Origin: Escherichia coli
GTDB lineage: Bacteria; Pseudomonadota; Gammaproteobacteria; Enterobacterales; Enterobacteriaceae
Strand: one strand, 5' to 3'
Assembly: GCF_044324785.1 (NCBI RefSeq)
Contig: NZ_CP172127.1
DNA length: 64,000 nt
The notes beneath the pieces were generated by a model. It saw only the letters and a program-made list of their open reading frames with translations. It searched no databases and had not been told where the DNA came from. Shown here in pieces: positions 21,882 through 22,106 of this stretch (positions are counted from its first letter, which is position 1; every line of letters starts with the position of its first letter). The position numbers and the translations under genes are program-made.

Positions 21882-22106
21882 ATGAGTGAGAATACCGGAA
21901 AATCCCATGAAAATAAAATGGTTATTATTGACTACGGGGAATATGATGAATACCTTCGTAACGCGTGGTTCCGAGGTTTTCGGGAAGGTTATGATATGGC
22001 GATGAAATTTGGATTAGGCTGCCAGCAATGTTATGAAACAGGTGAAAAAATAGCATGCGCAAGAGCTGAAGAATGCCGTAAAAAGATTAAGGTAATAAAA
22101 CACTGA
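21882..22106 (+). CDS. Hypothetical small Cys-containing protein, 74 aa
   Basis: MSENTGKSHENKMVIIDYGEYDEYLRNAWFRGFREGYDMAMKFGLGCQQCYETGEKIACARAEECRKK; GAGGT upstream of ATG; conserved in arm B (37307..37531) with two substitutions. Confidence 0.35.
   Translation: MSENTGKSHENKMVIIDYGEYDEYLRNAWFRGFREGYDMAMKFGLGCQQCYETGEKIACARAEECRKKIKVIKH

Follow-up and report, generated by a model that had tools for sequence, protein, structure and literature searches.

Evidence for purifying selection on a small cysteine-containing gene paired with an accessory sodC in an IS-rich island of Escherichia coli

Introduction

Accessory sodC genes, which encode periplasmic Cu,Zn-SOD, contribute to virulence in Salmonella and are present in pathogenic Escherichia coli. 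The closest described relatives of the gene considered here are prophage morons, namely Gifsy-2 sodCI, Fels-1 sodCIII and the lambdoid sodC of O157:H7, which belong to the same sodC lineage and are likewise horizontally mobile. The prophage copies of sodC are inserted as one gene without a small companion, whereas at the locus described here it forms a two-gene unit with a small open reading frame (ORF), carried on an IS-rich island or plasmid.

The product of this ORF recalls described protein families in some respects and departs from each of them in others. HMA copper chaperones (CopZ/Atx1, with GMxCxxC) share with it a small size, a cytoplasmic location, a copper enzyme as neighbour and a local G-L-G-C-Q-Q-C at a helix N-terminus; yet no Pfam HMA match appeared at E up to 10, and our product is predicted to be all-alpha rather than beta-alpha-beta-beta-alpha-beta. 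The CsoR/RcnR/FrmR proteins are small all-helical repressors with a two-chain Cys/His sensing site, which resembles the mechanism that we propose below, but the ORF product has two predicted helices instead of three and a different Cys/His spacing. Membership of CsoR/RcnR was rejected at an hhalign probability of 0.1% (with hand-entered reference sequences) and with no Pfam Trns_repr_metal match. The third resemblance is to Pfam DUF7574 (PF24459) and PHROGs 6984 and 6881, phage proteins of about 105 aa, whose profiles match P0009, a metagenomic orthologue of the ORF product, at the corresponding positions over residues 17-60 (E 0.023 for DUF7574, 0.05 for phrog_6984 and 0.11 for phrog_6881). 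These matches are below threshold (best 15.1 bits against a cut-off of 27) and confined to P0009, whereas the E. coli and Klebsiella proteins gave none; the profiles are also about 30 residues longer than the ORF product, and tblastn against phage genomes returned nothing. The product lies outside any described family; HMA, CsoR/RcnR, prophage cargo and DUF7574 were each rejected on a defining criterion.

The gene itself is listed in public databases. An identical sequence is deposited as RefSeq WP_001470144.1 (hypothetical protein) and UniProt A0A0X5F841_ECOLX (uncharacterized), and is annotated by PGAP in about 120 complete E. coli genomes. Neither entry assigns it a family, a domain or a function, so they offer no more than the gene call itself, and literature searches on the accession, DUF7574 and this sodC island found nothing relevant. 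Here, we analyzed the ORF in a stretch of 64,000 nucleotides of E. coli DNA (assembly GCF_044324785.1, contig NZ_CP172127.1; hereafter the window). We conclude, with a probability of about 0.95, that it is a true gene in its own right, encoding a soluble protein of 74 residues without signal peptide or hydrophobic segment, that it is under purifying selection, and that it forms with the accessory sodC a two-gene cassette of about 1.2 kb, which is found in IS-rich islands, occurs truncated on IncF plasmids and is present in a minority of Enterobacteriaceae.

Results

A small gene convergent with an accessory sodC

The first copy of the small gene occupies positions 21882-22106 on the plus strand and comprises an ATG start, 74 codons and a stop; PGAP also calls this 225-nt form. 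Its translation, MSENTGKSHENKMVIIDYGEYDEYLRNAWFRGFREGYDMAMKFGLGCQQCYETGEKIACARAEECRKKIKVIKH, carries cysteines at residues 47, 50, 59 and 65, all inside GCQQCYETGEKIACARAEEC. The preliminary description had reported a 74-codon frame with an upstream GAGGT and four cysteines in the C-terminal half, and both points were borne out. The GAGGT Shine-Dalgarno motif (21870-21874, plus strand) lies 7 nt 5' of the ATG; the Klebsiella pneumoniae locus (L002) has the identical motif and spacing, and the metagenomic locus L007 has AAAGG at a similar distance, which by reading of the sequence gives Shine-Dalgarno motifs in three of three lineages. Further upstream, TTGAAT, a 17-nt spacer and TATACA (21753-21781, plus strand) form a candidate promoter whose TTGAAT is invariant in a three-way alignment of the upstream regions; a consensus promoter scan missed this candidate because its -10 element lacks the final T. 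Between the candidate promoter and the Shine-Dalgarno motif we read a perfect 14-bp palindrome, AAAAGTATACTTTT (21842-21855), inside a 23-nt block that is identical in K. pneumoniae, while the counterpart site in L007 is the imperfect palindrome ATACAGTGTAT. A longer, 119-codon reading from the ATG at 21747 was rejected, since the matching Klebsiella frame is closed by a stop and is not conserved.

The neighbouring accessory sodC (22235-22759, minus strand; Pfam Sod_Cu, 6e-32) ends with a stop codon at 22235-22237, leaving 128 nt between it and the ORF stop at 22106, in agreement with the earlier estimate of about 130 bp. The two genes had also been described as divergent, which did not hold: the ORF is on the plus strand and sodC on the minus strand, and they are therefore convergent, tail to tail. 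The spacer contains a hairpin (22204-22228) with a 10-bp stem, which is terminator-like in a scan of both strands and also forms when the spacer is folded as RNA (z-score of -2.2 for the spacer as a whole). Its stem is identical in K. pneumoniae, with one change in the loop. On the far side of sodC, a block at 22842-22882 (L002 1361-1402; L007 822-862), about 85-125 nt 5' of the gene and reading TTCTAATTTGCATAATTAAT..TGATAGT.ACAT on the sodC strand, is conserved in three lineages within surrounding DNA that cannot be aligned; it is probably the sodC promoter or an operator.

At the protein level, this SodC is 79% identical to the SodC of Stx2a-converting phages and about 60% identical to those of Fels-1 and Gifsy-2, and its gene is 76.6% identical in DNA to the O157:H7 prophage sodC. 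In the DNA comparison, the housekeeping gene of E. coli had diverged too far from the window sodC to be detected.

An inverted repeat in an IS-rich island

Both genes lie within an inverted repeat whose arms were located by repeat search at 21063-22823 and 36590-38350. The search rounded their identity to 100%; direct comparison of the arms counted 7 mismatches in 1761 positions (99.6% identity), at 21100, 21639, 21661, 21692, 21782, 21934 and 22188, with five in non-coding DNA upstream of the ORF and one each in the ORF and the spacer; sodC is free of them. The second sodC copy (36654-37178, plus strand, from the ORF list) accordingly has no mismatch to the first, and the second copy of the small gene was placed at 37307-37531 on the minus strand by pattern match, translation and arm comparison. 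The ORF had been described as retained in both arms; a second copy is indeed present, but the implied identity does not hold, because position 21934 in codon 18 specifies Tyr in copy 1 and Cys in copy 2. At 99.6% identity the arms are nearly silent on constraint and coding status, and the earlier caution that conservation between them could merely reflect duplication is upheld. Given that both codon-18 alleles circulate separately in E. coli, the arms may not stem from a very recent duplication.

The repeat structure extends beyond these arms. A second inverted pair lies further out (20301-20875 and 39873-40447; 575 nt, 99% identity), and arm 2 consists of two repeat blocks split by an IS3-family element with rve domains (38361-39266); the outer pair together with this insertion indicates true arms of about 2.5 kb. 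In arm 2, no more than 64 nt of the native DNA upstream of sodC remain, and the gene begins 96 nt past SBP_bac_8, the last gene of a same-strand ABC-transporter operon (32682-36558), so that sodC copy 2 may be transcribed by read-through instead of from its own promoter.

The 13.8 kb between the arms (22824-36589) hold fragments of IS256- and IS110-type transposases, sitABCD (26121-29591), a ROK-family gene (30523-31635), a GDPD phosphodiesterase gene (31651-32481) and the four genes of that ABC transporter, and look like a composite bracketed by inverted copies of the sodC-ORF pair. Elsewhere in the window (18139-19380, 41109-49541 and 53366-54685) we noted a group II intron reverse transcriptase, a LysR regulator and, after it, fdrA/allG/carbamate-kinase-like genes that belong to the allantoin region of E. 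coli, and a YadA-anchor adhesin.

The ORF thus lies in an IS-rich island with sitABCD, to which the island of a related genome (L001) adds aerobactin genes, and not in a prophage. With IS elements, sitABCD and ABC transporters around it, its context is not that of prophage cargo (a moron); a tblastn search of the ORF against 50,697 phage records gave no match, and a motif scan of IMG/VR gave chance matches only. The earlier label of a phage-type sodC therefore stands with respect to lineage, given the 79% amino acid identity to the Stx2a-phage SodC, but not with respect to setting. Of 5,426 complete E. coli genomes, about 121 have the 1.76-kb repeat unit, nearly always on the chromosome and often in poultry isolates; strains SMS-3-5 and APEC O2-211 are among the carriers of the gene.

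Orthologues and coding status

Relatives of the ORF product are exceedingly few. Apart from variants and fragments of the E. coli protein, a word-indexed search across 5.8 billion protein clusters found a single protein, from K. pneumoniae (P0004, 74 aa, 81% identity), and an exhaustive HMMER search of 1.84 billion representative proteins added one more true relative, P0009 (75 aa, 55-57% identity, from two Logan metagenome contigs), its other two matches being repeat proteins. Further word-indexed searches with the E. coli protein, P0009 or the alignment as queries yielded no extra relatives, and a peptide-pattern scan of 100,044 species-representative genomes yielded no match. A degenerate-DNA scan for W[FY]RGFREGY found eight E. 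coli-type copies in JGI metagenomes; its other metagenomic matches, and all of those in IMG/VR, were discarded as chance occurrences in non-coding frames. The ORF is therefore known from three lineages in a minority of Enterobacteriaceae, a very narrow distribution, and it is conserved outside the duplication, with orthologues in K. pneumoniae and a metagenomic enterobacterium.

These orthologues bear on the reading that the ORF is not a gene, but either a chance frame or an sRNA, antisense RNA or sodC 3' region kept only by recent duplication. Such a reading draws on the near-identity of the arms, which hold almost no information on constraint, and on a 57-nt stretch (22020-22076) with a single difference from K. 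pneumoniae. Comparison between lineages argues against it. Between the E. coli and K. pneumoniae ORFs there are 32 differences in 225 nt and no indels, with dN 0.104, dS 0.434 and a ratio of 0.24 (Fisher P 4e-4). For sodC in the same pair, dS is 0.448 and dN/dS 0.09; the equal dS values imply an equal divergence time for both genes. The non-coding flanks are gapped, at 76-81% identity. Against P0009, synonymous change is saturated (pS 0.91) and nonsynonymous change is limited (pN 0.24; Fisher 6e-16), and in residues 25-66, the core of the predicted hairpin described below, pN is 0.14 against a pS of 0.89. Third-position changes are thus saturated and replacements few, which is not expected if the ORF were no gene.

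The same conclusion is suggested by the frame itself, whose length is kept at 74-75 codons across lineages with a core free of indels; each of the five other frames contains a stop in at least one lineage, leaving the +0 frame as the only one open in all three. When a 2-kb region of the window was compared with L007, only the sodC coding sequence (72%), the ORF core (74% over 134 nt, ungapped) and the 41-nt sodC-upstream block could be aligned; the ORF core thus aligns and the DNA flanking it does not. An Rfam search of 21000-23000 gave no match at E up to 1. The non-genic reading is largely refuted and we consider it very improbable. Coding status had been left uncertain in the preliminary description; the balance of synonymous and nonsynonymous change in both comparisons (a ratio of 0.24 with K. 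pneumoniae, and the pN and pS values with P0009) indicates that the ORF is a true coding gene whose protein evolves under purifying selection.

Within E. coli, all sampled polymorphisms are nonsynonymous and fall in codons 8-20 (S8P, S8Y, E10K, Y18C and E20D; loci L011-L013, L018 and L027-L029), that is, at window positions 21903-21941 in the predicted disordered tail, with S, P or Y at codon 8 and Y or C at codon 18. Codons 21-74 are invariant across the sampled E. coli loci. Since variation is limited to codons 8-20, the N-terminal tail appears free to vary and the remainder constrained, although these polymorphisms are too few to separate relaxed from diversifying selection.

Linkage to sodC and katG

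A blastn comparison of the window with L002 delimited a 1.18-kb cassette (21716-22895) that is shared with K. pneumoniae at 85% nucleotide identity. This block comprises the ORF, the hairpin and sodC with its upstream region and nothing else, and its flanks are unrelated; for example, K. pneumoniae has a FecCD-type ABC transporter where the window has IS elements. Across lineages, sodC adjoins the ORF in three of three and all other neighbours differ. In L007, the order is sodC (208-732, minus strand), an IS3-family remnant, the ORF (1485-1712, plus strand) and katG (2177-4348, plus strand), which places the ORF on the opposite side of sodC, across the IS3 remnant, and 465 nt upstream of katG. 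The katG gene has about 75% DNA identity to E. coli and Citrobacter katG, suggesting an enterobacterium-like host. Downstream of katG, an 83-aa ORF (4613-4864, minus strand) begins MRIVIFGYKDC; by eye its product is glutaredoxin/NrdH-like, but it lacks CxxC and has no Pfam match. The altered neighbours and the rearrangement in L007 indicate that adjacency to sodC outlived the complete turnover of its neighbourhood and one rearrangement. All three adjacencies may nevertheless share one ancestral cassette, and may for that reason count as a single association event.

Conversely, sodC also occurs without an intact ORF. On IncF plasmids of Escherichia albertii and E. coli, the end of an IS2 cuts the ORF at 22011 and leaves sodC intact, and one contig is cut at 22031. 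On pEA04.3 (E. albertii, L005) and pCFSAN083828_2 (E. coli, L006), the remaining 813-bp fragment (locus 4046-4858), with an intact sodC and the last 32 ORF codons, has yacB/relE-type toxin genes and psiAB or repA nearby. Several chromosomes carry an IS5 that deprives the ORF of its last four codons, and in lambdoid prophages sodC sits between a tail-assembly gene and gpJ with the small ORF absent. The ORF is not obligatory for sodC, which persists without it.

This pattern raises the alternative that the ORF encodes a real protein that is functionally unrelated to sodC, a passenger possibly of phage or plasmid origin that stays beside sodC only through co-movement over about 130 bp. The retention of sodC where IS2 or IS5 truncates the ORF, its presence in lambdoid prophages without the ORF, the higher A+T content of the ORF (39% GC, against 48% for sodC), the weak matches of P0009 to phage-derived DUF7574, phrog_6984 and phrog_6881, and the wholly nonsynonymous polymorphism within E. 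coli are all consistent with a passenger. On the other hand, adjacency to sodC outlasted synonymous saturation and the turnover of every other neighbour, it survived the move of the ORF to the other side of sodC, and the other neighbour in the L007 lineage is katG, a second oxidative-stress enzyme gene. The hairpin core is moreover under purifying selection, which implies that the protein is useful to its host. We regard an unrelated passenger as quite possible, if short of probable, and roughly on a par with the oxidative-stress role proposed below.

A predicted cytoplasmic alpha-hairpin with conserved cysteines

The ORF product is hydrophilic, with a GRAVY of -0.8 and a Kyte-Doolittle maximum of 0.08 or less in 19-residue windows, and we found neither a signal peptide nor a membrane segment in it, its N-terminus being MSENTGKSHENK. 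It should therefore be cytoplasmic. A role as an exported, periplasmic partner of SodC was ruled out by the same hydrophilic N-terminus and hydropathy maximum.

AlphaFold2 (AF2) with the three-lineage alignment gave a mean pLDDT of 79, exceeding 95 for residues 30-60, and the five models agreed (76-79). The models contain helices at residues 18-42 and 47-73 joined by an FGLG loop, and residues 1-13 have a pLDDT below 50 and were treated as disordered. Residues 1-17 are predicted to form a variable, disordered tail, and residues 18-73 an alpha-hairpin of two antiparallel helices that pack along small-xxx-small stripes (A28/G32/G36/A40 against C50/G54/A58/A62), with the CxxC (C47 and C50) predicted to cap helix 2. 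The stripe residues are invariant, which accounts for this packing. C47, C50, C65 and the C-terminal His (H74) are invariant across lineages, and C59 is Tyr in P0009; the conserved polar and aromatic surface comprises R26, W29, R31, F33, R34, E35, Y37, Q48, Q49, E52, T53, E55, K56 and R61. The Gly/Ala packing stripe shares its helical face with C47 and C65, which may be buried packing residues and not ligands.

The preliminary description did not recognise the family, and neither profile nor structure searches matched a known one. The E. coli protein had no match in Pfam, NCBIfam, PHROGs, PADLOC or a PDB sequence profile; Foldseek against PDB and BFVD gave generic hairpins, all at E 0.17 or worse, and HMA, CsoR, zinc-ribbon and other metal or redox families gave no match.

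Discussion

From the gene neighbourhood and the Cys/His pattern, as seen in only three lineages, we tentatively propose that the ORF product acts in the cytoplasm, in a thiol- or metal-dependent manner, as an accessory or regulatory factor for the oxidative-stress enzymes encoded alongside it, which are sodC everywhere and katG in one lineage. This proposal is possible but remains below even odds: sodC does well without the ORF, and C59 is not conserved. In the monomer model, C47/C50 and C65/H74 lie far apart along helix 2, so a dimer must be assumed for them to act together. The protein would probably form an antiparallel dimer, a four-helix bundle. This arrangement would bring C47/C50 of one chain next to C65/His74 of its partner, and the four residues could then coordinate Zn or Cu, or else undergo reversible disulfide formation. 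On helix 1, the invariant Arg/aromatic face (R26, W29, R31, F33, R34 and Y37) would contact a partner protein or nucleic acid.

That face also lends itself to another explanation, according to which the product is a small dimeric DNA- or RNA-binding regulator that controls its own promoter, sodC or both through helix 1, with the cysteines serving a structural role only. Helical-hairpin dimers that bind nucleic acid exist, Rop being an example, and the invariance of these six residues would fit such a function. The 14-bp palindrome at 21842-21855, just upstream of the Shine-Dalgarno motif and identical in K. pneumoniae, could be its operator, and the sodC-upstream block conserved in three lineages offers a further candidate site. 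However, no HTH, RHH or other DNA-binding family was matched, and the palindrome is absent from the sodC upstream region and has only a loose echo in L007. We consider a nucleic acid-binding regulator with purely structural cysteines unlikely.

To return to the thiol- or metal-dependent factor, a broader suggestion is that the ORF product is the first member of an undescribed family of hairpin proteins that share a CxxC...C...H arrangement and serve in the cytoplasm as a thiol or metal switch, one devoted to oxidative-stress enzymes acquired horizontally. We put this forward as a rather doubtful extension of the proposal. If it is true, the switch could, for example, respond to oxidant or copper by adjusting how a virulence-associated periplasmic Cu,Zn-SOD is expressed or supplied with its cofactor, and likewise KatG in one lineage.

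The listing of the gene in databases as a hypothetical protein was already known; what our analysis adds is the evidence of selection, the very narrow distribution, the lasting association with sodC, joined by katG in one lineage, and the fold prediction. The result is modest and would not surprise a specialist. Even so, this hypothetical protein, which about 2% of complete E. coli genomes encode (many of poultry origin), may from now on be regarded as the product of a real gene under selection, with a conserved predicted hairpin as its core. A dedicated small partner protein, if that is what it proves to be, would represent an undescribed regulatory or cofactor-handling layer for accessory sodC.
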